DNA from: an uncultured Gemmatimonadaceae bacterium
GTDB lineage: Bacteria; Gemmatimonadota; Gemmatimonadetes; Gemmatimonadales; GWC2-71-9
Assembly (NCBI GenBank): GCA_964348295.1
Contig: CAYGBV010000013.1
Coordinates: 5,993 to 69,992, forward strand
Length of the DNA stretch: 64,000 nt
Direction of reading: 5' to 3'
Numbering within the stretch: the first letter of the stretch is position 1; each line of letters opens with the position of its first letter. The position numbers were made by a program, and so were the translations under genes. Positions 32,172 through 47,213 of the stretch are shown piece after piece. Below the pieces are notes generated by a model. The model was not told the origin of the DNA. It saw nothing but the letters and a program-made list of their open reading frames with translations, and did not search any database.

Positions 32172-32960
32172 GTGCCCGATAACGATACCCCGGACCGCAG
32201 GCAGGGCGATCGCCGCCGCGGGAGCGAGCAGCGCGCGGGAGGGTCGCGGCGCTCCGGCCACGACCGGCGCGCCAAGGAGCCTCCGAGCCCCGAGGCGTCC
32301 ACCCGCAGCGGCAAGGAGCGCAGAACCCGCGTGCGGCGCGCCGGTCGGCGGCGACGGCGCTGGGACCGGCGCGTCGGGGAGCACCACGACAACCCTGCGG
32401 TCTACTCGCGGGACGAGATCACACGCATCCGCAAGTTGCTGGTGAGCACTCGCGTGCCGTTCACCTGCCCCCGATGCGACGGCGCGTTACACCAGGGCGA
32501 CCCCATCATCGGCAACGGGTGCACCCTGCGGCCCGTGCGCTGTGAGGCCTGCCATCGCAGTACCACCATACCGGACTACGTTGTCGTGCGCGCACTGGTG
32601 GTTGACGACGACGAGCCGGTCCGTGAGGGTCTGGCGACCATCCTGAGGGGAGCCGGCCATGAGGCGGTGGCCACGGCAGACGGGAGCGCGGGCGTTCGCG
32701 CCTGCGGGACGGACTCGCCCGACGTTGTCTTCGTGGACATCGCGTCGGTGCGAGCCGAGGTGGAAGTCATCGCGCAGGCCCGCAAGGCGTTCCCCGATGT
32801 CAAGGTGATCGCCGTGGGAGGCCGGCAGCGCCGCGGAGCCGGTGATCCGCTGGCCATCGCGGGCACGCTGGGCGTGCAGGCAACACTGCGGCGGCCATTC
32901 ACGCCGCACGACGTGCTGCGGGCGGTGGATGTGGCGCTCGGCCTGGTACGGGCCGATTAG
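32172..32960 (+). CDS. Atypical response regulator: Arg-rich N-terminus, zinc ribbon, receiver domain
   Basis: DRR repeats; CPRC...CEAC; [10 protein letters not shown]...DVVFVDI...LRRPF. Confidence 0.65.
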
Positions 32961-34699
32961 CGTTGCCTGCGGGCCTCGGCCGCTTCCCGTGCGGCGACCT
33001 TAGCCCACGTATCCCTGAGCGTCACCGTCCGGTTGAACACCGGGGCGCCGGGCTGCGAGTCCTCGTCTGCGATGAAGTAGCCCTGCCGCTCGAACTGGTA
33101 GCGGGTGCCGGGCGGGTCATCCGCCACGCTGGGCTCGATGCGGCTCTCGTTCAGCACGACGAGTGACTCGGGGTTGAGGTAGTCGGTGAACTGCGTCCCC
33201 TCCTCCACATCGTCCGGGTTCGCGGTGACGAAGAGGCGGTCGTATAGCCGCACCTCGCAGGGGAGCGAATGCGCGGCCGAGACCCAGTGGATGGTGCCCT
33301 TCACCTTGCGGCCGTCGGGGGTGCCGCTCTTGGTCTCGGGGTCGTAACTGCAGTGCAGCTCGGTGATCTCGCCCGTCTTGGGGTCCTTGATGACCTCCTC
33401 GCACTTGACGATGTACCCATAGCGCAGCCGCACCTCGCGTCCCGGCGCGAGACGGAAGAACTGCTTGGGCGGGTCCTCCATGAAGTCGTCCCGCTCGATA
33501 TAGATCTCGCGTGAGAACGGGAGCGGGCGGGAGCCCTCCCTGGGGATGTCCCTGGGATAGTACGGGGCGTCCAGCTGCTCGACCTGCCCCTCGGGATAGT
33601 TGGTGATCACCACCTTTAGCGGCCGCAGCACGCACAACACCCGGGGGACCTTGGGGTTGAGGTCGTCGCGAATCGCCCACTCGAGCTTCTCGATGTCCAC
33701 CCGGCTGTCGGTCTTGGCCACGCCCACTAGATCGCAGAACTTACGGATCGCATCCGGCGTCACGCCGCGGCGCCTGAGTCCGGCGATGGCCGGCATGCGG
33801 GGATCGTCCCAGCCGCCCACGTACCCCTCCTCCACCAGCCGGATCAGCCGGCGCTTGCTGAGCACCGTGTAGTCCAGGTTGAGCCGGGCGAACTCGGTTT
33901 GCGCGGTGCGCGGCCGCTCGATCCCGACCGCGTCCAGCACCCACTCGTACAGCTCGTTGTTGTCCTTGAACTCCAGCGTACAGAGCGAGTGCGTGATGTC
34001 CTCGATCGCGTCGGAGAGGCAGTGCGTGTAGTCGTACAGCGGGTAGAGGCACCACTCGTCACCGCGGCGGTAGTGGCTGGCGTGCCGGATGCGGTACAGC
34101 ACGGGGTCGCGCATCAGCATGTTGGGATGCGCCATGTCGATCTTGCCCCGCAGCACGTGCTCCCCGTCTGCGAACTCCCCGGCCTTCATGCGGCGGAACA
34201 GGTCGAGGTTCTCTTCGGGGGAGCGGTCGCGGTAGGGGCTGGGCTTGCCCGGCTCGGTCACCGTGCCGCGGTACTGCCTGATCTCCTCCTCGGACAGGCT
34301 GTCCACGTAGGCGAGGCCCTTCTCGATCAGCAGCTCGGCCCACTCATACAGCTGCTCGAAGTAGTCCGAGGCGTGGTACATGCGGTCGTCCCAATCGTAT
34401 CCCAGCCACGCGACGTCCCGCTTGATGGCCTCGACGTACTTCATGTCCTCCGTTTCGGGGTTGGTGTCGTCGAACCGGAGGTTGCAGGTGCCGCCGTGCT
34501 CCAGCGCCAACCCGAAGTTGAGGCAGCACGACTTGGCGTGTCCGATGTGGAGATAGCCGTTCGGCTCGGGCGGAAACCGGGTCGCGACCCGGCCGCCGTA
34601 TTTGCCCGTGCGCCCGTCCTCCTCGACCATCGACCGAATGAAGTCGAGGCCGGGCTTGCGGAGGCCTTCGCTCTTCTCGGGTGCTCGCTCTTCTGGCAC
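32957..34699 (-). CDS. glnS: Glutamine--tRNA ligase (no YqeY tail)
   Basis: [63 protein letters not shown]. Confidence 0.95.
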
Positions 34700-39010: not shown

Positions 39011-41431
39011 CTACTCCATGCCGCGCTCGCGCAGGTAGTCTCCCAGGCGCTGAATGAACGCCTCGCGCGAGGCCTCGTCGAGAAACAGGTCGATCTGGCC
39101 GGCCGCCCGCTGCACGGCCATGAAGTCAGTGATGAAATCGTACAGCGTATTGGCCGCGTCGAGCTCGGCAACGAGCGCCGTGTTCTGGGCGTCGAGCAGG
39201 CTGAGGATGCCGGTTACGCCCCCCGCGTAGGCAGTCCGCACGAGCTCGTAGTTACCCTGTGCTGCGGTAGCGGCCTCCCGCGCCAACTCCAGGCGCACCC
39301 GGGACGACAGCAGGCGCTGCAGCTCGTCGCGCATCGCCTCCTCAACCCGCTGCGCCTGCGAGGTGCGCTGATACTCGAGGCTGAACAGGCTCTGTTGGGC
39401 CCGCTCCTTTGCCGCGGTGCGCGAGCCGCTACCGAACAGCAAGTAGCGGGCACTCAGCGAAATCGACCAGCGCCAGGGGTCGGCCTCCCCTTCAGGCACC
39501 AGGCCGGGAGGCAGACCACCGCCCGAGAAGTCCGAGCCGGCGCCCCCCTCCAGCAACCGGTTCGAGAGACGCGCATCGAGAAAGAACTCAGGCAGCCAGA
39601 AGGACCGGTTGGCGGCCGTCACCGCGCGCTCCTGGCCCCCGATCAGCGCATCAAGCGCCCGCAGCTCCGGCGACGTTACCAGCGCTTCGGCAATCATGAA
39701 GTCCTGGAAGCCGTCGAAGCGCTGCGGGTCGTCCAGCAGCCGCGTCAGGGCGTCCTCCGCCCAGCGGATCACCGGATCTTCGAGCTCATCCTCGGGGGTG
39801 GCGACATCCTCGCCGAGTGCTCGGTGCAGCAGGCGGTTGAGCCGTATCTCGGCAACTGCCCGCGCGGCCGCCGCGCCGACCACCCCCTGGCGGTCCTTGG
39901 AGACCTGCGCCTGCCAGCGCAGCACCTCCCCCGGAGTCGCCGCTCCCGTCTGCCGCCGCACATCGGCCAGGTCCAGGTTCGTGCGCGTGAACGCGAGGTT
40001 CTCCCGCCGGATCTGCTCGGTCGTCTTGCGGCGTAGCACGGTCAGATAGGCGTCGGCCGCCTCGAATGACACGTCGAGCCGCAGCGACGCGTAGTCCTCC
40101 TCCCGCGCACGCTGCAGCGACTGCTGAATAGTCCGATCCGCCCACGCGCGGTCGGCATACACGACCTGCGAAAGCCCCACCGAGCCCAGCAGCTGCCTCT
40201 GGGGCAGGACCCCGAGGCTGCGGGCCGCCCGGTCTTCGTCGATGATCGTGCCCGAGAATGCCAGATCGAGCTGCGGCAGGAGGCGTGACGTCGCGGTCTT
40301 CACGTCCTGCGCGGCCGCCTGCACAGCGCGCTCGAACGACGCGAGATCCTGATTCTGCGCCAGCGCCTCCCGCACGATCGAGTCGAGCGACTGCGGCTCG
40401 GGTTGCACCCCGGGCCGCTCCTCGATGAGTCGCGCGTCGCTCAGCATTGTCCACGACGGATACACCCCGATGGCGCGCGCGGTCTGCATATTGACGATCA
40501 AGCGCTCCTGCGGCACGAACGTCACGCGCAACTGCCCCGGTGCATCGCCCCGGAGGATCTGTTCTACGGTGAGCGCCGTCAGCCGAGCGAGCTGGAACGT
40601 GAAGGAGTCCGGGCGCCGCGCCAGCAGGATGCCCTGGCGAACCTCGGCCTCCCCGAACCAGGAGAGGCTCGGCAGCCCGAGCTCAATCAGTCCATCTGCC
40701 AGCTGCTCGAACGCCGCGCTCGAGACCCGCGACAGTGGCAGCACGTACACTGCGTCCGCCCCAGCGACCTCGATTGCGTCGAGCGCGAGTTGAACATCGT
40801 CGCCCACCGGAACGACCACCGCCTCGGCTCCGGCTTGCGCCACCAGCTGCTCGACGCGGCTGTCCAGGGCCGGCATCTCGGCGACCGCAGATGCACTCAC
40901 GAGCACGGCGAGGCGCTGAAAGGCGACCACCTCGGCCAGCGTGGCGAGATCCCGGTTCTCGGGTCGCGTGAGGTACACGAAGTTGGACACCCCGGAGGCA
41001 GCGCCCTGTCGGGGGATGTCCTGTAGCGAGGGGTCGAGCACGAAGGGGGCGACGACCGGCTTGGCGAGTCGCGGATGGTCGGCAGCCACCTGTGCACCCA
41101 TGGTACCGACGACCACTACCACGTCCACCCGATCCATGAGCTGATCGAGCGCCGCACGGATGCCGGCCTGCGTATGATCGCCGGCCAACCTCACATCCCC
41201 CCCGATGCGCACCTCGAACCGGTTCTCGAGAAGCACCGCCGTCTCCCGCTCGATCTGGTCCAACAGCTCGCCGAAGCGGAGAAACGGGCCGTCGGTCAGG
41301 ATGCCGATCGTCACCGGTGTCCGCTCTTGGGCGGCGGCCGTCGGGGCGACCGAGCCAATCCCGAGTGCAGCCAGCACCGCAAGCAGGAGACGGGTAGCCA
41401 ACGGATGTTCAGCGGACAGGCGAACTCCCAT
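39011..41431 (-). CDS. TolC-family outer membrane protein fused to an N-terminal ABC substrate-binding-like domain
   Basis: Signal peptide; about 330 aa periplasmic-binding-like region ending LIVNMQTARAIGV; OEP repeats (ALAQNQDL, SRLLPQLDL, SFWLPEF, YAGGVTGILSLLDAQ). Start 41431 or 41461, not 42325. Confidence 0.8.
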   Translation of the reverse strand: MGVRLSAEHPLATRLLLAVLAALGIGSVAPTAAAQERTPVTIGILTDGPFLRFGELLDQIERETAVLLENRFEVRIGGDVRLAGDHTQAGIRAALDQLMDRVDVVVVVGTMGAQVAADHPRLAKPVVAPFVLDPSLQDIPRQGAASGVSNFVYLTRPENRDLATLAEVVAFQRLAVLVSASAVAEMPALDSRVEQLVAQAGAEAVVVPVGDDVQLALDAIEVAGADAVYVLPLSRVSSAAFEQLADGLIELGLPSLSWFGEAEVRQGILLARRPDSFTFQLARLTALTVEQILRGDAPGQLRVTFVPQERLIVNMQTARAIGVYPSWTMLSDARLIEERPGVQPEPQSLDSIVREALAQNQDLASFERAVQAAAQDVKTATSRLLPQLDLAFSGTIIDEDRAARSLGVLPQRQLLGSVGLSQVVYADRAWADRTIQQSLQRAREEDYASLRLDVSFEAADAYLTVLRRKTTEQIRRENLAFTRTNLDLADVRRQTGAATPGEVLRWQAQVSKDRQGVVGAAAARAVAEIRLNRLLHRALGEDVATPEDELEDPVIRWAEDALTRLLDDPQRFDGFQDFMIAEALVTSPELRALDALIGGQERAVTAANRSFWLPEFFLDARLSNRLLEGGAGSDFSGGGLPPGLVPEGEADPWRWSISLSARYLLFGSGSRTAAKERAQQSLFSLEYQRTSQAQRVEEAMRDELQRLLSSRVRLELAREAATAAQGNYELVRTAYAGGVTGILSLLDAQNTALVAELDAANTLYDFITDFMAVQRAAGQIDLFLDEASREAFIQRLGDYLRERGME

Positions 41432-41677
41432 GAGGCCTCTGGGTAAGTGTCCGTTACTCATACGGCTTCTGTCATTTGGGCTGAAGTACGGCCCGTGACG
41501 GCGAAGAGCTATACCCTCTTGGTGGTATGCGGGAGCGAAGGGGGCAGCATACACCGGGCGGACCCGTCTCGTCAACGCGCCGCGATTCGAGATCGGCATC
41601 AGTGGCGCCGCGGCGCAGGTAGACAAACGGCGCGCATCCGTCGATCTTTGGGCGGCAAACTGCAAAGGAGCCTCGGC

Positions 41678-42250
41678 ATGTATTCCGTTCGCGTTCCAGT
41701 TCTGGCGGCCGTCGCCGTCATCACGCTCACGACCACCGCGCTGGCACAGGAGGCCAAGTTCGTTGGCATCTCCGGCGGAGCTACGCTGGGCGACCTCAAT
41801 GGCGGCGTGACCAACACCGACAACCGCTGGGGCGGTACCGCCGGGGTGTTCTTCGGCTACCGCAGGTGGTACACGATCGGCGTGCTCGAGGCCAACTGGG
41901 TACAGAAGGGTGGCGGGGACACCCGCATCGACTACATCGAGGTTCCGTTCCTCGTTGGCGGCGGGACCACGACGGACGCCGGGATCCTGTTCCGGCTCTA
42001 CACGGGGCTGGGAATCGCCTTCCCCATCGGCTGTAACTCCACCTCGACCTCCGAGCTCCAGAACTGCGACCTGAAGAAGAGCCCCGAGTGGGCGTGGCCC
42101 ATCGGCCTGCTCGTCGGGCGCGAAATCGGCGGCCCTCGCTTCGCGGCCATCGACGCGCGCTACTCGATCGGCATCTCGGACGCGTTCGATAACGCGATAT
42201 CCTCGAATCGCTCCTGGCAGTTCCGCCTGTACGTGGGTCAGCGACTCTGA
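41678..42250 (+). CDS. Small outer membrane beta-barrel protein
   Basis: Signal peptide (ALA-QE), alternating Gly/aromatic strands, DARYSIG, C-terminal strand QFRLYVGQRL. Confidence 0.7.
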   Translation: MYSVRVPVLAAVAVITLTTTALAQEAKFVGISGGATLGDLNGGVTNTDNRWGGTAGVFFGYRRWYTIGVLEANWVQKGGGDTRIDYIEVPFLVGGGTTTDAGILFRLYTGLGIAFPIGCNSTSTSELQNCDLKKSPEWAWPIGLLVGREIGGPRFAAIDARYSIGISDAFDNAISSNRSWQFRLYVGQRL

Positions 42251-42282
42251 TCCGGCGCCGCGCAGCGGGCGCGCCAACCAGA

Positions 42283-42311
42283 AAGGGCGAGCGCACGGCG
42301 CGCTCGCCCTT
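42283..42311. terminator. Hairpin between convergent genes, likely bidirectional terminator
   Basis: AAGGGCGAGCGC-ACGGC-GCGCTCGCCCTT, perfect 12-bp stem. Confidence 0.7.
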
Positions 42312-42337
42312 GGCACATCCGGCACCGCGGTGGGCCG

Positions 42338-43738
42338 CTAGCCTCTCAGCCCGGCCACGAACTTGTCGAGCAGCGTGCTGGGGAACGTCCCGCCCGACTC
42401 GAGTATGTCGCGATACCGCGTGAGCGCGTCGGCCACCTCGTAGAAGTCGCGCGGCACCCGCTCGGCGCGCCCTCCCTTCCCTTGCCTCGCCTGCTCGGCC
42501 GAGGTGCGCTGCAGCAGGTCCTCCAACTCCTCGGTGTCGCGGCCCTTGATCATCGCCAGCGCCGCGCCGGCCAGGAGCAGGTGGGGCAGCGCCGAGCCGT
42601 CGGGCAACCGGAACTCCACGGTGGCGGGCGTTACCACCCGACCGGTCCCGTCGGTGGCCACCACCGGCAGGCGAATCAGTGCCTGGCGGTCGTAGTCGCC
42701 CCACACGATGGTGCTGGGTGCCTCCTTGGCCTGGCGGATACGGACGAAGGAGCCCTCTACCCGGTTGCCGAACGCCATGAGGGCACCACCCATCTGCACC
42801 AGCCCACCGATGAGCCACCGGGCGCCATCGGTAAGCGTGCCGTCCTCGTGCTTGACGGGCAGCACCTCGCCGTCCTTGACGGGCGCCAGGTGGAAGTGGA
42901 GTCCGTTCCCAGCGTGGCCCTCGAGCATCATCGGGCCCGTGGCGCAGCGCATGCCCTTCCGGTGCGCCAGGTTCCGCAGCACCCATTGGGTGAGCAGAAT
43001 CCCGTCGGCGGCTTCGGGCAGCGGCGCCAGGGAGAGCTCGATCTCGTGCTGCTCCCAGATGACGCCTCCCGCCTCGCTCGCCTCGATGTAGCCCACCTCG
43101 CTGTGTCCGTACTTGACCGGCACCGCGAGGTCTGCCAGCAGCGCGAGCGCCTTGCGCCGCAACCCTTCTCCGAACACGAATGGGGAGCTGGCGTGGTAGC
43201 CCCGGTCGTCGGCGCCGTAGATGTCCGACTCGTCGCGTCGCTTGCCGAGGAAGTACTCGACCTCACCGAGGGCCCAGAGCTCGACGCCCGCGGTCTCCTT
43301 GAGCTGCCGCACGGCGCGGCGCAGGATCGTGTCGGGCGAGGCCGCCAACGGCTTTCCGTCCCGGTCCGCGTGCCCGCACATCAGCACCAGCGTCGGGAGC
43401 GACGCGAACGGATCGAGGAACGCGGTCCCCACGCGGGGCCGCAGCACGATGTCGGACCGGTCGGGCGGAATCCCGGCGCGCGGGAACAGGCTCGAGCCGT
43501 CGGCCCGCTCGCCGCCCTCGATGATGTCCTCGAGCTGCTGCGCGCTGCGCGGCACGAAATCCAGCGTCTTGAGCCAGCCGTCGCCGCCCACGTGCATCAG
43601 GCTCACGACTTGAATGCCGCGGGCCCGCACCAGCTCCACCAGATCGGCCGCGGTCCACGCGGCGCGTGGCTTGTCCAGCTCGTCCTCCAGGCTCATTCCC
43701 CGCGGCACTGGCGTGCGCGGCCGTGTTTCTTCACTCAT
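42338..43738 (-). CDS. Glutamine synthetase-family protein (Bacteroidota-like GS I variant)
   Basis: DGSSLF, GEVEYF, HSEVG, QHEIE, GNGLHFH, EAP, DRQALIRLP, VEFRLPD; ATG 43738 overlaps gatD stop. Confidence 0.88.
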   Translation of the reverse strand: MSEETRPRTPVPRGMSLEDELDKPRAAWTAADLVELVRARGIQVVSLMHVGGDGWLKTLDFVPRSAQQLEDIIEGGERADGSSLFPRAGIPPDRSDIVLRPRVGTAFLDPFASLPTLVLMCGHADRDGKPLAASPDTILRRAVRQLKETAGVELWALGEVEYFLGKRRDESDIYGADDRGYHASSPFVFGEGLRRKALALLADLAVPVKYGHSEVGYIEASEAGGVIWEQHEIELSLAPLPEAADGILLTQWVLRNLAHRKGMRCATGPMMLEGHAGNGLHFHLAPVKDGEVLPVKHEDGTLTDGARWLIGGLVQMGGALMAFGNRVEGSFVRIRQAKEAPSTIVWGDYDRQALIRLPVVATDGTGRVVTPATVEFRLPDGSALPHLLLAGAALAMIKGRDTEELEDLLQRTSAEQARQGKGGRAERVPRDFYEVADALTRYRDILESGGTFPSTLLDKFVAGLRG

Positions 43739-45129
43739 CGCCACACCTTCTCCAGGAACTCCTGAATCTCCGGCACCCCACCCTGGAACACCAGGTACCC
43801 GTCGTGCGGCTCGCGTGCCGTGGTCTCGCCGGCGACGGGCGTCATCATGAGCTGCTTCACCGCCTCCGGATCGTCGGGGTGTGCCCCCAGCGCCCACCCC
43901 AGCTTAACGAACGCCACCTCGGGCAGCATGTTGGCGAGCGGGATGACGCCGAGCTCCAGGATCTCGCGCCCCGTCTCGTACACCTGCATCTGCACGAAGC
44001 CCCACAGGGTCTGGAGCGTCATGTACATGTGCACGCCGGCGGCGTGCGCCCGCCCCAGCGCCGGATAGATAGTACGATTGACGTGCCCCAGGCCCGTGCC
44101 CGCGATCACAATTCCCTTGTAGCCCTTCTCCACCAACGCATCCACTACGTCGGCGTGCATGCCCGGGTAGTAGTACAGCATCGTGACCCGCTCGTCGTAC
44201 ACCGCCTGGACCGTGACGTCGCAGTCGTTGCGGCGCCGCTGCCAGTCGTCCTTGAGCGGGGTGATCGTGCCCTTCTCCACCATGGCGAGGGGAACGTCCC
44301 CCAGCGTGCGGAACGTGCTGCGGTAGGAGCTGTGCATCTTGCGCACCCGCGTGCCGCGGTGCAGCAGGTTGTAGCGGTCCGAGGTGGGGCCGAACATGCA
44401 CACCATCACCTCGGCGATCGGCCCGCGCGCCGCCGTCCACGTGGCATTGATGAGGTTCTGCGCCGCGTCGGACGACGGCCGGTCGGAGGAGCGCTGCGAG
44501 CCCACCATGACGACGGGCACCGGCGGCCGCTGCACCATGAACGACAGCGCCGCCGCCGTGTGGTGCATCGTGTCGGTGCCGTGGCCGATCACCACGCCGT
44601 CCCAGCCGTCGCGAATCGCCTCGCCCACTTTCTCGGCGAGGATGAGATACTGCTCGGGCCCCATGTTCTCGCTGAACACGCCGAACAGCTTCTCCGTCTC
44701 GAGGTTGCAGATGTCGGCCAGCTCGGGCACCGAGCCGTAGAGCTCCCCGGGGCTGAACGCCGGGATCACCGCGCCCGTGCGGTAGTCGAGCCGCGACGCG
44801 ATGGTGCCGCCCGTGCCGAACAGCTTCACGCGCGGCTTCACCGGATCGGTGGGGAACTCCTTCTCGGGGATCTTGTAGCGCGCCTCGCGGTAGCCGGTCT
44901 CTTCCATCACGAGGATGGTGTCGAACCTGAGCCCCACGTTGTAGCCGCTCCCCAGCTTGAGCACCAGGTGCGCGTCGTCGCTGGTCTCCGAGCGCGGCAG
45001 GATCAGCCCCTCGAAGTCGCCGCGGGTGGTGCGGGCCTTCACCTCGCTCCACACCTTCACTCCGAACCGCTTCATCACCTCGAGGGTGGGTCCGCGGTAT
45101 CCCTTGTATTGGTCCTTGCCGCCGCTCAT
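43735..45129 (-). CDS. gatD: Glu-tRNA(Gln) amidotransferase subunit D (archaeal-type, asparaginase fold)
   Basis: GatD-specific N-domain (YKGYRG...EGLILPRSETSDDAHLVLKLGSGYNVG), TGGTIASRLDYRTGAV, SENM, HGTDTMH, GSQRSSDRPSSDA, HRGTRVRKMHSS, AFVKLGWALG. Confidence 0.92.
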   Translation of the reverse strand: MSGGKDQYKGYRGPTLEVMKRFGVKVWSEVKARTTRGDFEGLILPRSETSDDAHLVLKLGSGYNVGLRFDTILVMEETGYREARYKIPEKEFPTDPVKPRVKLFGTGGTIASRLDYRTGAVIPAFSPGELYGSVPELADICNLETEKLFGVFSENMGPEQYLILAEKVGEAIRDGWDGVVIGHGTDTMHHTAAALSFMVQRPPVPVVMVGSQRSSDRPSSDAAQNLINATWTAARGPIAEVMVCMFGPTSDRYNLLHRGTRVRKMHSSYRSTFRTLGDVPLAMVEKGTITPLKDDWQRRRNDCDVTVQAVYDERVTMLYYYPGMHADVVDALVEKGYKGIVIAGTGLGHVNRTIYPALGRAHAAGVHMYMTLQTLWGFVQMQVYETGREILELGVIPLANMLPEVAFVKLGWALGAHPDDPEAVKQLMMTPVAGETTAREPHDGYLVFQGGVPEIQEFLEKVWR

Positions 45130-47213
45130 GCCACCGTCTCCGGCACGGCGTCCTCGAGCGCCTGTGTCAGCCGCCGCCGTACGTCGGTCGGGTCGAGCCG
45201 GCCCAGGAACCCGGGCATGACCGCACCCATCGCCCAGCGCAGCACACCGTCGCGTGACGCGGTCGTGAGCGACTGTGCCTCGACCACCACGTCGGTCAGG
45301 CGGCGCGTGAGCTCGTCCGCGTCGTGGGCACGGCCCCGGTAGCGCGCCAGCAGCTCGTGTGCCGCGACCTCGGGTCGCTCGATGAGCGCATCCAGCATGC
45401 GGTCCAGCGCTTCTACCCGGATCTCACCCTTCTCGATGGCAAGCACCATGGGCGCGAGGCGCTCGGGCGCGGGCAGCGCCGCCGCATCCCGCGTGAGCCG
45501 CCCCTGCCGGCGGTGGTGCGGCAGCCGCTTCTGGAACGCGTTGGCGAGCCGGCGCGCCACGTCACCGGCCGCGGGCGCGAGCGCGTCGAACAGATCGGCC
45601 CACTCCGCCCGGGCGAGTCGCCGCGCCATTCGGAGTTCTAGCCCCAGCTTCTCGTAGCGCGCCTCACGCGCCCATGGCGTCTCGGCGATCTGCTCGCGCA
45701 CCTCGGCCACCAGCGCGTCGGCAATGGGCAAGGGCGGCGTGTCGGTATCGGGGTACATGCGGTCCGGCCCCGGCAAAATGCGCTCGAACCCGTTGGTACC
45801 GTCGTCGAACGCCTGGCGCGTCTCCGAGGGCACGCCGACCAGGGCGTCCTGGCACCGGATCAGCACCTCGCGCGCCGCGGTGGCCGCGTCCTCTTCCGTG
45901 CCCCACACGACGACGATCGCGTCACCCGTCTCGGCCTTGAGCTGCTTGCGCAACTCGCGCCACTCGCGCGGGTCGAGCCCGTAGTCCTTGATGTCGGAGT
46001 GGATCATGAACGGGCGGTGCTCCGGACACGCGATCACGCGCACCCGGTCGGCGATCTCGCGGGCGAAGGTCACGCCGGGCTGGGTGCGGTGATTGAGCAA
46101 ACCATCGAAGCCGGGGAGCCGCACCGCAGCGATCGTCTCCCCCCGCTCCAGCGCGTCGCGCATCGGTTGAAAGTCGGAGTGAGCGAGCGCGGTGCCAGCG
46201 TCCACCACCTGGTCGCTCACCTCCCACGGCAGCCCACCCTCCGGAGTGGTGAGCATGTCGTCCCCCACCTCGCGCCGCACCAGCTCGGCCTTCACCCTGA
46301 GCAGGTTGAGCTGGCGGAACGCCTCGGTGTGGACCAGGAGCGGCAAGTGCTTGTGGTTGTCCACCCCCTTGAGCTCCACTCGCCGCCCGCCCGCCACCGA
46401 GACGTTGGTGTCCTGCCGTGCCGCTCCCGGGCCGCGCCGCACCTTCCCCGTGGCCTGCGCGATGGCCGCCAGCAGGCGCCCTCCCGCACGGACCTCCCAG
46501 GGAGTCAGCAGGTCGGGCTCGGTGACCGTCTCGGTAAGCGGCATCCCCAGGCGGTCGGTCTTGAACGTGATGCGGTGGCCGATGTCGGTCACCTCACGGC
46601 AGGAGTCCTCCTCCAGCGAGAGCTGCCGGATCCTGAGCTCCCGGTCCACGCCTAGCTCCGGCACCCGGAACGGCACCGTGCCCGTGAGCCCCACCATGGC
46701 CGTGCGCTGGAAGCCCGTGGGGATCGAGCCGTCCAGGTACTGCTTGCGCATCACGTGTAGCTCGGACACCAGGTTCAGATTGCAGAGCTGCGCGATCTCA
46801 ACCGCGATCCGCACCGCCTCTTCGTCGAGCTCGAACGGCGGCGTGTCGTCCATCTCGTAGGTGCAGACCGTGCCGCGCTCCAGCCGGTACACGATCTCCT
46901 TCTTGGTCTTGAACTCCATGAGCGCGGTGCCGTCGTACTCGCCCAACTCGCTCAAGGTGGGGCGCATGTGGCGCAGTACCTCGGCGTCGTACACGGTCAC
47001 CCGCCGGCCCGCCGGACAGCGGCAGAACAGCTTGGACGTGGTGCGGAGCTGCTGGTGGACCTCGACGCCGGACATGAATCCCACGGCGTCGTAATCGCCG
47101 GGCGTCATGTCGGCCAGGTCCTTGTCGCGGAAGTCCAGCGCCGGCTCCCGGCGGGGGTTCAGATCCGCCGGGGGGCGCGGGCCGGACTGGTTGGCGTTGT
47201 CGTCGTCGCTCAT
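45126..47213 (-). CDS. gatE: Glu-tRNA(Gln) amidotransferase subunit E (archaeal-type)
   Basis: GVEVHQQL..KLFC, RPTLSELGEYD, MRK...DGS..TGFQRT, LEED, DRLGMPL.E, KVRRG.G..RQD.NVS..GG.RVELKGV, AspRS-like insertion, GVPSETR, LPGPDRMYPDTDTPP, tail WAMGAVM; start trimmed to ATG 47213. Confidence 0.92.
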   Translation of the reverse strand: MSDDDNANQSGPRPPADLNPRREPALDFRDKDLADMTPGDYDAVGFMSGVEVHQQLRTTSKLFCRCPAGRRVTVYDAEVLRHMRPTLSELGEYDGTALMEFKTKKEIVYRLERGTVCTYEMDDTPPFELDEEAVRIAVEIAQLCNLNLVSELHVMRKQYLDGSIPTGFQRTAMVGLTGTVPFRVPELGVDRELRIRQLSLEEDSCREVTDIGHRITFKTDRLGMPLTETVTEPDLLTPWEVRAGGRLLAAIAQATGKVRRGPGAARQDTNVSVAGGRRVELKGVDNHKHLPLLVHTEAFRQLNLLRVKAELVRREVGDDMLTTPEGGLPWEVSDQVVDAGTALAHSDFQPMRDALERGETIAAVRLPGFDGLLNHRTQPGVTFAREIADRVRVIACPEHRPFMIHSDIKDYGLDPREWRELRKQLKAETGDAIVVVWGTEEDAATAAREVLIRCQDALVGVPSETRQAFDDGTNGFERILPGPDRMYPDTDTPPLPIADALVAEVREQIAETPWAREARYEKLGLELRMARRLARAEWADLFDALAPAAGDVARRLANAFQKRLPHHRRQGRLTRDAAALPAPERLAPMVLAIEKGEIRVEALDRMLDALIERPEVAAHELLARYRGRAHDADELTRRLTDVVVEAQSLTTASRDGVLRWAMGAVMPGFLGRLDPTDVRRRLTQALEDAVPETVA

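Follow-up and report, generated by a model that had tools for sequence, protein, structure and literature searches.

An Asgard-related GatDE gene pair in a Gemmatimonadota bacterium whose tRNA(Gln) species carry U1-A72

The gatE-gatD pair and the bacterial GatE clade

The window analysed here is a 64-kb stretch (G000:C13:5993-69992) of the source assembly, G000, of an uncultured Gemmatimonadaceae bacterium (3.42 Mb in 74 contigs, 67.7% G+C, 92% complete). It carries three coupled minus-strand genes, gatE, then gatD, then a glutamine-synthetase-family gene, the first two of which encode the subunits of a GatDE amidotransferase. Reviews treat GatDE as exclusive to archaea and as reading the A1-U72 pair of tRNA(Gln); here it occurs in a large bacterial branch that meets only U1-A72 tRNA(Gln). 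The sequence comparisons below place the pair, with both genes intact, in this branch, with the GatDE of Asgard archaea as its nearest relatives. The features of the pair on which the analysis turns are as follows, the three segments of GatE being read from its translation.

45126-47213, minus strand: gatE, 695 residues, the open frame reaching 47273 (NCBIfam, Pfam, AlphaFold2 (AF2) model)
43735-45129, minus strand: gatD, 464 residues, its start overlapping the gatE stop (TIGR02153, Pfam)
46701-46748, minus strand: GatE motif 1, RKQYLDGSIPTGFQRT, with Y159, I164 and P165
46398-46448, minus strand: basic loop KVRRG, then motif 2 GAARQDTNVS, GKVRRGPGAARQDTNVS; corresponds to the 3-10 turn of GatB
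45201-45260, minus strand: tail-domain segment ASRDGVLRWAMGAVMPGFLG, in which the archaeal G..A..G motif is not retained

GatE passed the cut-offs of both equivalog models, by a narrow margin for NF003107 (478.8 bits against 456) and with 414.9 bits against 319.6 for TIGR00134, and an identical protein is present in the database; those homologues that bear taxon names come from Gemmatimonadota or Gemmatimonadales. Its Pfam layout is a GatB_N domain split by a GAD insertion, plus GatB_Yqey (29 bits against 27). The AF2 model (predicted local distance difference test score 91.9) found its best Protein Data Bank folds in 1zq1_C and 2d6f_D, with target-normalised template-modelling (TM) scores of 0.80-0.81, followed by GatB, and its GAD insertion gave weak AspRS fold matches. 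By Pfam and the model, the cradle, the AspRS-like (GAD) insertion, the helical domain and the YqeY-like tail domain are all present. We considered GatB of GatCAB as the identity of 45126-47213 and rejected it: GatB models scored 118-152 bits against cut-offs of 315-338 (the best 152 against 338), the genome showed no GatB, and no GatA above cut-off, and the protein lacks the 3-10 turn. GatD scored 483 bits on TIGR02153 (cut-off 324), carries the GatD_N and asparaginase domains of Pfam, matches 2d6f_A with E 1.5e-113 and retains the TGGTIAS and HGTDTM motifs.

Roles for the kinase and transamidase residues of GatE (E-x-H, the Mg-binding Glu, LEED and R-x-D-x-N-x-S) have been assigned previously, with the N and S of RQD.N.S as ATP ligands (PMC4027206). 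This GatE conserves both ATP ligands, and E51, H53, E201, E202, R266, D268, N270 and S272 were invariant across 60 bacterial, Asgard and archaeal sequences. The catalytic apparatus is complete, GatE having its ATP and Mg ligands and GatD its asparaginase triad motifs. G+C at third codon positions is 0.90-0.94 for gatE and gatD, similar to the adjacent genes. GatE also holds a set of cysteines. C64, C66 and C117 are nearly invariant across GatE, and the bacterial clade alone has fixed C205 and C396, with C205 found in the Heimdall sequence as well; this may point to a metal or redox site peculiar to the bacterial branch.

The pair resembles the archaeal GatDE of Methanothermobacter thermautotrophicus (2D6F, with tRNA(Gln)) and Pyrococcus abyssi (1ZQ1) in its two subunits, in the domain layout of GatE and GatD, in its ATP, Mg and asparaginase residues and in a short basic loop beside pair 1-72; sequence matches to these structures reached E 1e-85 to 1e-113, with a target-normalised TM score of 0.8. 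It differs in that this GatE is 32-35% identical to them, sits in a bacterial host and has an N-terminal extension of about 40 residues.

A search among 50%-identity representatives recovered 2811 homologues. These fall by identity into a Gemmatimonadota group (60-70%), a broad clade II (42-54%) and an archaeal-like mass (31-38%). Two patterns from the clade II alignment, KQYLDGSI and RHMRPTLSE, matched at least 599 stretches when species-representative genomes were scanned. The best 80 of these were all bacterial, from Ignavibacteriota, Bacteroidota, Chlorobiota, Aminicenantes, Planctomycetota, Calditrichota, Cloacimonadota, Marinimicrobia and Myxococcota. At 70 of these 80 loci gatE and gatD are adjacent, and the GatD there is 64-75% identical to that of the window. 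Within the phylum we sampled 201 Gemmatimonadota genomes, a tally that includes four flagged as unpublished (G057, G097, G157 and G182) on which no single claim depends. GatE is present in 14 of them and in 10 of 98 genera, and the two genes are adjacent in every Gemmatimonadota locus long enough to show the pair.

In a FastTree phylogeny rooted on GatB, bacterial GatE was monophyletic (support 1.0) and sister to a Heimdallarchaeota GatE (0.915), inside an Asgard grade, with 66 mainstream archaeal GatE on the opposite side; this was one quick tree, and its deep supports are moderate. The Asgard sequences (the Heimdallarchaeota TET29438.1 cluster, Hodarchaeales MHA2245723.1, Thor MFW9855810.1 and Odin MFW9990517.1) share motif 1 or a near form of it with the bacterial clade, together with Y119, F127 and D489, and stand in a sister or grade position to it. 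They differ in being only 33-38% identical and from archaeal hosts, in keeping E123, in lacking C205 and C396 in most cases, and in a motif 2 that is mostly G(T/S/A)(I/L/V).

A sequence-only reading of the window had noted that this GatE deviates in two usually conserved motifs. The strings it quoted, RKQYLDGSIPTG and GAARQDTN, are present exactly and differ from the RK(I/Q)VIDGSN.. and GTIRQDLN of P. abyssi and M. thermautotrophicus, so that the consensus it gave is essentially right for mainstream archaea. The corresponding strings are MRKIVIDGSNVSGFQRTA and RGLGTIRQDLNVS in P. abyssi GatE and MRKQVIDGSNTGGFQRT and RGLGTIRQDLNIS in M. thermautotrophicus GatE; mainstream archaeal GatE has V, N and T where motif 1 here has Y, I and P. 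Across 26 diverse clade II bacterial GatE, the columns R-K-Q-Y-L-D-G-x-I-P-x-G-F-Q-R-T and R-x-D-V-N-x-S were invariant. Motif 1 is identical in Heimdall and Hodarchaeales GatE, and near-variants such as RKNYLDGSVP.. occur in Thor and Odin sequences (assigned to Heimdallarchaeota, Hodarchaeales, Thorarchaeota and Odinarchaeota by cluster name); Thermoplasmatota served as the control for the mainstream motif. The substitutions are therefore common in Asgard GatE and not in that of mainstream archaea. Motif 1 differences are a signature of the Asgard-plus-bacterial branch, near-invariant within the bacterial clade.

A column scan of 56 bacterial against 66 mainstream archaeal GatE returned only 12 columns fixed differently. 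Of these residues, Asgard GatE shares Y119 and Y159 in 9/9 sequences, D489 in 8/9 and P165 in 7/9, and F127 is also common there. GatB carries the equivalents of Y159 and P165 in 8/8 sequences; at position 164, GatB has Leu or Met and Asgard GatE has Val or Ile. Given that Asgard GatE and, for the Tyr and Pro, GatB carry the motif 1 residues, Tyr159, Ile164 and Pro165 are best read as retained ancestral, GatB-like states, with the Val, Asn and Thr of mainstream archaea derived, rather than as an adaptation to bacterial tRNA. As such, they appear uninformative about a change of tRNA.

This bears on the proposal that the motif substitutions themselves switched GatE from A1-U72 to U1-A72, which we hold to be quite unlikely. 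The substitutions are invariant across bacterial GatE, motif 2 follows directly on the loop beside pair 1-72, and a few columns are specific to bacteria: only D123 and C396 are confined to bacterial GatE, with C205 and M83 common to the Heimdall sequence alone. However, the Asgard and GatB states of motif 1 speak against such a switch, as does motif 2, whose positions (TI or AA) vary both inside Asgard and inside bacteria; the T of GAARQDTN is private to this genome, with V in its relatives. The sequence-only reading had suggested that GatE is adapted to bacterial tRNA. The enzyme may be, but the motifs cited for this are not evidence of it.

tRNA first pairs and the region beside pair 1-72

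M. thermautotrophicus GatDE reads the A1-U72 pair of tRNA(Gln) and refuses tRNA(Glu) by its larger D-loop, and bacterial tRNA(Gln) carries U1-A72, which is recognised by GatCAB (PMC2330236, PMC2811023). These sources support the contrast from which the sequence-only reading had started. Its statement that the window holds no tRNA gene was also borne out, in that ARAGORN found no tRNA and Rfam no RNA family in the 64 kb; the nearest, a tRNA-Ser at C13:70795, lies just outside. ARAGORN identified 44 tRNAs in the whole assembly, including two for glutamine.

C19:33300-33370: tRNA(Gln)(UUG), 71 nucleotides, U1-A72, A73
C30:8750-8823 (complement): tRNA(Gln)(CUG), 74 nucleotides, U1-A72, A73

The tRNA(Asn) of the genome likewise has U1-A72, with G73, and tRNA(Glu)(UUC) has G1-C72. 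[quoted passage not shown] A1-U72 occurs in the assembly on tRNA(Trp) only, where it is normal for bacteria. Because the assembly is 92% complete and its tRNA set incomplete (no tRNA-Ile, for example), we widened the census to relatives. In 11 GatDE-bearing Gemmatimonadota, tRNA(Gln)(UUG) always carried U1-A72 and A73. A covariance model of tRNA(Gln) was also run on GatDE-bearing genomes from other phyla, five in all, of which three are closed chromosomes; its top-scoring tRNA(Gln) matches were all U1-A72, mostly with G73. Among the loci inspected in the assembly, the 11 relatives and the five genomes of other phyla, we found no archaeal-style A1-U72 tRNA(Gln). This makes it less likely that the enzyme works just as archaeal GatDE does but, being a property of the host tRNA, leaves its place in the family by homology untouched.

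These data argue against the idea, also raised from the sequence alone, that the genome hides an archaeal-style tRNA(Gln). Such a tRNA could lie in the unassembled part, given the incomplete assembly and tRNA set, or the genes could be a decaying recent import. We regard both as highly improbable: an A1-U72 tRNA(Gln) is missing from the 11 relatives and from the best tRNA(Gln)-model matches of the closed GatDE-bearing chromosomes, and the genes have native composition, intact frames and invariant catalytic residues, the pair being found in 10 Gemmatimonadota genera.

Several features of these tRNAs are recorded as side observations. The tRNA(Gln)(UUG) is Glu-like, with a GUCC/GGAC D-stem, a 7-nucleotide D-loop and a 4-nucleotide variable loop, and the CUG species has a 5-nucleotide variable loop. 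We considered the Glu-like 71-nucleotide (UUG) or the 74-nucleotide (CUG) form as a marker for the amidotransferase or for GlnRS, and discarded this since both types are found throughout the phylum, whether or not GlnRS, GatB or GatE is present. Both genomic tRNA(Gln) have A73, not G73, the base used by Escherichia coli GlnRS. The tRNA(Glu)(CUC) at G000:C53:4835-4906 has an apparent G1.U72 wobble (the stem drawn by ARAGORN has 8 bp, with one additional U-A). It is unusual for a tRNA(Glu) to have a weak first pair when that pair is read by an amidotransferase.

We then compared the region of the enzyme that lies beside this pair. The GatB of Staphylococcus aureus tells U1-A72 from G1-C72 by a 3-10 turn (K183-E186) that immediately precedes GS.R.D.N.S, and GatE has a short, conserved, positively charged loop in its place (PMC2811023). 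All eight GatB carry the two extra residues of the turn (NMEE or similar) and no aligned GatE does, the bacterial sequences included; bacterial GatE has therefore not converged on the GatB solution. The loop is KVR(R/T)G in bacterial GatE against KVKRG in archaea, an archaeal length and charge that again count against a switch made by the motif substitutions. This leaves two options: the basic loop may accept any weak first pair, or specificity may reside in another part of the enzyme. GatB of S. aureus GatCAB (3IP4) otherwise shares with this GatE the cradle fold, the chemistry and the Tyr and Pro of RK.Y....P.G; it differs in the two-residue-longer turn, in the lack of an AspRS-like insertion and in having GatA and GatC, not GatD, as partners.

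The tail domain, which lies near the tRNA D-loop in 2D6F, holds the clearest clade-wide difference outside the cradle. Archaeal sequences have RG-ERAF-GPLMG there and bacterial ones ..R[WYF].MG, in a part of the alignment that is loose.

Charging enzymes and gene neighbourhood

Archaeal GatDE is the only route to Gln-tRNA, there being no GlnRS, but here GlnRS coexists with it. The source genome encodes a single GatE and a single GluRS, a bona fide GlnRS, AsnRS and an AsnB-family protein that passes its cut-off; at 92% completeness it showed no GatB and no GatA above cut-off, and no AsnA was found. Given GlnRS, AsnRS and AsnB, neither Gln-tRNA nor Asn-tRNA formally needs transamidation. In the phylum sample GatB occurs in 156 genomes and GlnRS in at least 88, and GlnRS accompanies GatE in 13 of the 14 genomes that carry the latter, in two cases as a fragment at a contig end. 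Within the family of the window's host, GatB is present in 2/9 genomes with GatE against 85/88 without it, and in 14/16 genomes that have GlnRS and lack GatE. GatB was also found in 8/24 GatDE-bearing genomes of other phyla. The genomes are related to one another, and these counts are to be read as patterns, not as statistics. They suggest that an amidotransferase is still wanted beside GlnRS and that GatDE is able to replace GatCAB, which works on U1-A72 tRNAs and was apparently replaced in this family.

We examined GatDE as the sole route to Gln-tRNA in three Gemmatimonadota genomes that seemed to lack both GlnRS and GatB (G149, G176 and G070). A lenient re-check found contig-end GlnRS fragments in two of these, leaving G149, and also detected split GlnRS matches in closed genomes earlier scored negative, so this reading was rejected within the phylum. 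Outside the phylum, a Marinimicrobia metagenome-assembled genome (MAG; G217, the genome of locus L085, Neomarinimicrobiota) has GatDE and two GluRS-like genes and no GlnRS, GatA or GatB, and one FCB MAG showed neither GlnRS nor GatB. Beyond these two there is no candidate for reliance on GatDE alone, and in both cases the missing genes could reflect an incomplete MAG. In G217 (C39:6421-6801, C6:7365-8159, C6:5827-5897) one GluRS-like gene lies 1.5 kb from tRNA(Gln)(UUG), a layout that resembles the GluRS1/GluRS2 system of Helicobacter and in which GatDE would, by analogy, be the amidotransferase.

The linkage of gatDE to other genes points to Glu/Gln charging. The glnS gene abuts gatD in two Gemmatimonadota genomes (G060 and G059) and adjoins gatE in a Myxococcota MAG. 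The G060 cluster (L019, G060:C52, 5034-12598) reads gltX (short form, divergent from gatE) / gatE - Asp/Glu racemase-family gene - gatD - glnS.

The sole GluRS of the source genome, at G000:C19:6865-8148 (L012:1156-2502) and thus outside the window, is also a short form (435-448 residues), which lacks a Cys-rich insertion of about 43 residues, a putative zinc-binding domain. In E. coli GluRS this insertion positions the acceptor arm. The short form recurs in the GatDE-bearing G176, G149 and G070, and the long form in G016 (GatCAB only), G058 (GlnRS only) and G033, a comparison of few and related genomes in a phylum whose metagenomes commonly hold the short form. We tried the Arg358 of Thermus thermophilus as a marker of GluRS discrimination and abandoned it: the residue is Arg in GatDE-bearing, GatCAB-only and GlnRS-only relatives, and the literature does not hold the rule to be universal.

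These data also bear on an alternative in which bacterial GatDE took over the other job of GatCAB, amidating Asp-tRNA(Asn) for tRNA-dependent asparagine synthesis. In its favour, GatDE tracks the loss of GatCAB in GlnRS-containing genomes, the host tRNA(Asn) carries U1-A72 and G73, and the tail motif implicated in refusing Asp-tRNA(Asn) (PMC2811023) is not conserved in the bacterial clade. There is also a precedent in the GatCAB of Deinococcus, Thermus and Bdellovibrio, which coexists with GlnRS and AsnRS, as described in PMC4206432. We nonetheless consider this alternative unlikely. AsnRS is encoded in the genome, as is an AsnB-family protein scoring above cut-off, and AsnRS occurs in 23/24 of the GatDE-bearing genomes checked. 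Archaeal GatDE acts specifically on Glu (PMC2811023), and gatDE is linked to glnS and gltX rather than to aspS or asnS.

Two further features of the window lie downstream of gatDE.

42338-43738, minus strand: glutamine-synthetase-family gene, translationally coupled to gatD, likely start Met at about 43738 (Pfam Gln-synt_C and Gln-synt_N)
32957-34699, minus strand: glnS, encoding GlnRS, same strand as gatDE and about 9 kb downstream of it (TIGR00440, 739.5 bits against 425.8; Pfam)

The product of the first scores under all NCBIfam glutamine synthetase equivalog cut-offs and could be a supplier of the amide donor. Such a gene follows gatD in the window and in 3/13 related Gemmatimonadota loci, and a similar one lies near gatE in two loci of other phyla (Rhodothermaceae and Phycisphaerae). 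Between it and glnS lies an OEP/HlyD/AcrB (resistance-nodulation-division, RND) efflux operon. A frame of 1104 residues at 39011-42325 (-) has an OEP match only in its last ~230 residues and no Pfam match in its long N-terminal part, which could be a separate gene or reflect a frame drawn too long.

Together with the redundancy created by GlnRS, AsnRS and AsnB, the coupling of a glutamine-synthetase-family gene to gatD in some Gemmatimonadota and the racemase gene between gatE and gatD in G060 would fit a non-translational or other acceptor (another tRNA, a tRNA-like molecule or a carrier), or moonlighting, for instance in nitrogen handling with the glutamine-synthetase-like protein. However, clustering of open reading frames over 93 loci gave no conserved partner besides gatD, and no odd tRNA was found. 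The model, of high predicted confidence, keeps the tRNA-binding architecture as a whole, from the cradle and insertion to the helical and tail domains. We therefore assign this possibility little probability.

Proposed role of GatDE in bacteria with GlnRS

These observations allow us to propose a role for the bacterial enzyme. We infer, with moderate confidence and from sequence comparison, that GatDE is an auxiliary amidotransferase acting on bacterial Glu-tRNA(Gln) and tolerating U1-A72. Since only U1-A72 tRNA(Gln) was seen in this genome and in the other GatDE-bearing bacteria examined, the enzyme must accept this pair if it has kept the chemistry of its family, in which the Glu on tRNA(Gln) would be phosphorylated and then amidated. 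The conserved short basic loop would read a weak first pair, A-U or U-A, as distinct from the G1-C72 of tRNA(Glu), and the remodelled tail domain would read the size of the D-loop. Beside GlnRS, and after the loss of GatCAB, GatDE would serve to clear or exploit Glu-tRNA(Gln) made by GluRS.

Some of the data weigh against this proposal. On paper GatDE is dispensable in a genome with GlnRS, AsnRS and an AsnB-type asparagine synthetase, and this extends to other phyla, where GlnRS occurs in about 64 of 74 GatDE-bearing genomes and AsnRS in 23 of the 24 checked. The genomes with GatDE only are MAGs, and of the three apparent cases within the phylum only G149 survived. No feature of the tRNAs follows the presence of GatDE, amidotransferase-less relatives having the same two tRNA(Gln) types, and the GluRS residue equivalent to Arg358 is Arg in all forms compared and not diagnostic. 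Our literature search found no paper or experiment on bacterial GatDE.

In bacteria that have both GlnRS and AsnRS, GatDE may instead have been recruited to another amidation, of Asp-tRNA(Asn) or of a non-translational acceptor, with the tail domain as the specificity switch. We find this broader reading possible but doubtful. A different acceptor was the last of the options raised by the sequence-only reading, and it keeps some weight from the coexistence of GatDE with GlnRS, AsnRS and AsnB. If true, GatDE would not be a Gln-tRNA(Gln) enzyme at all in those bacteria.

The puzzle stands and is sharpened, in that an archaeal-type first-pair loop is found in bacteria whose tRNA(Gln) carries U1-A72, usually beside GlnRS. 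This bears on how amidotransferases read the first pair and on whether GatB and GatE evolved that reading independently. A second question is why bacteria with a GlnRS of their own should retain GatCAB or GatDE and, apparently, exchange one for the other. The link to Asgard archaea, finally, is relevant to how the same bacterial genomes came to hold both the eukaryote-type GlnRS route and the archaeal indirect route.

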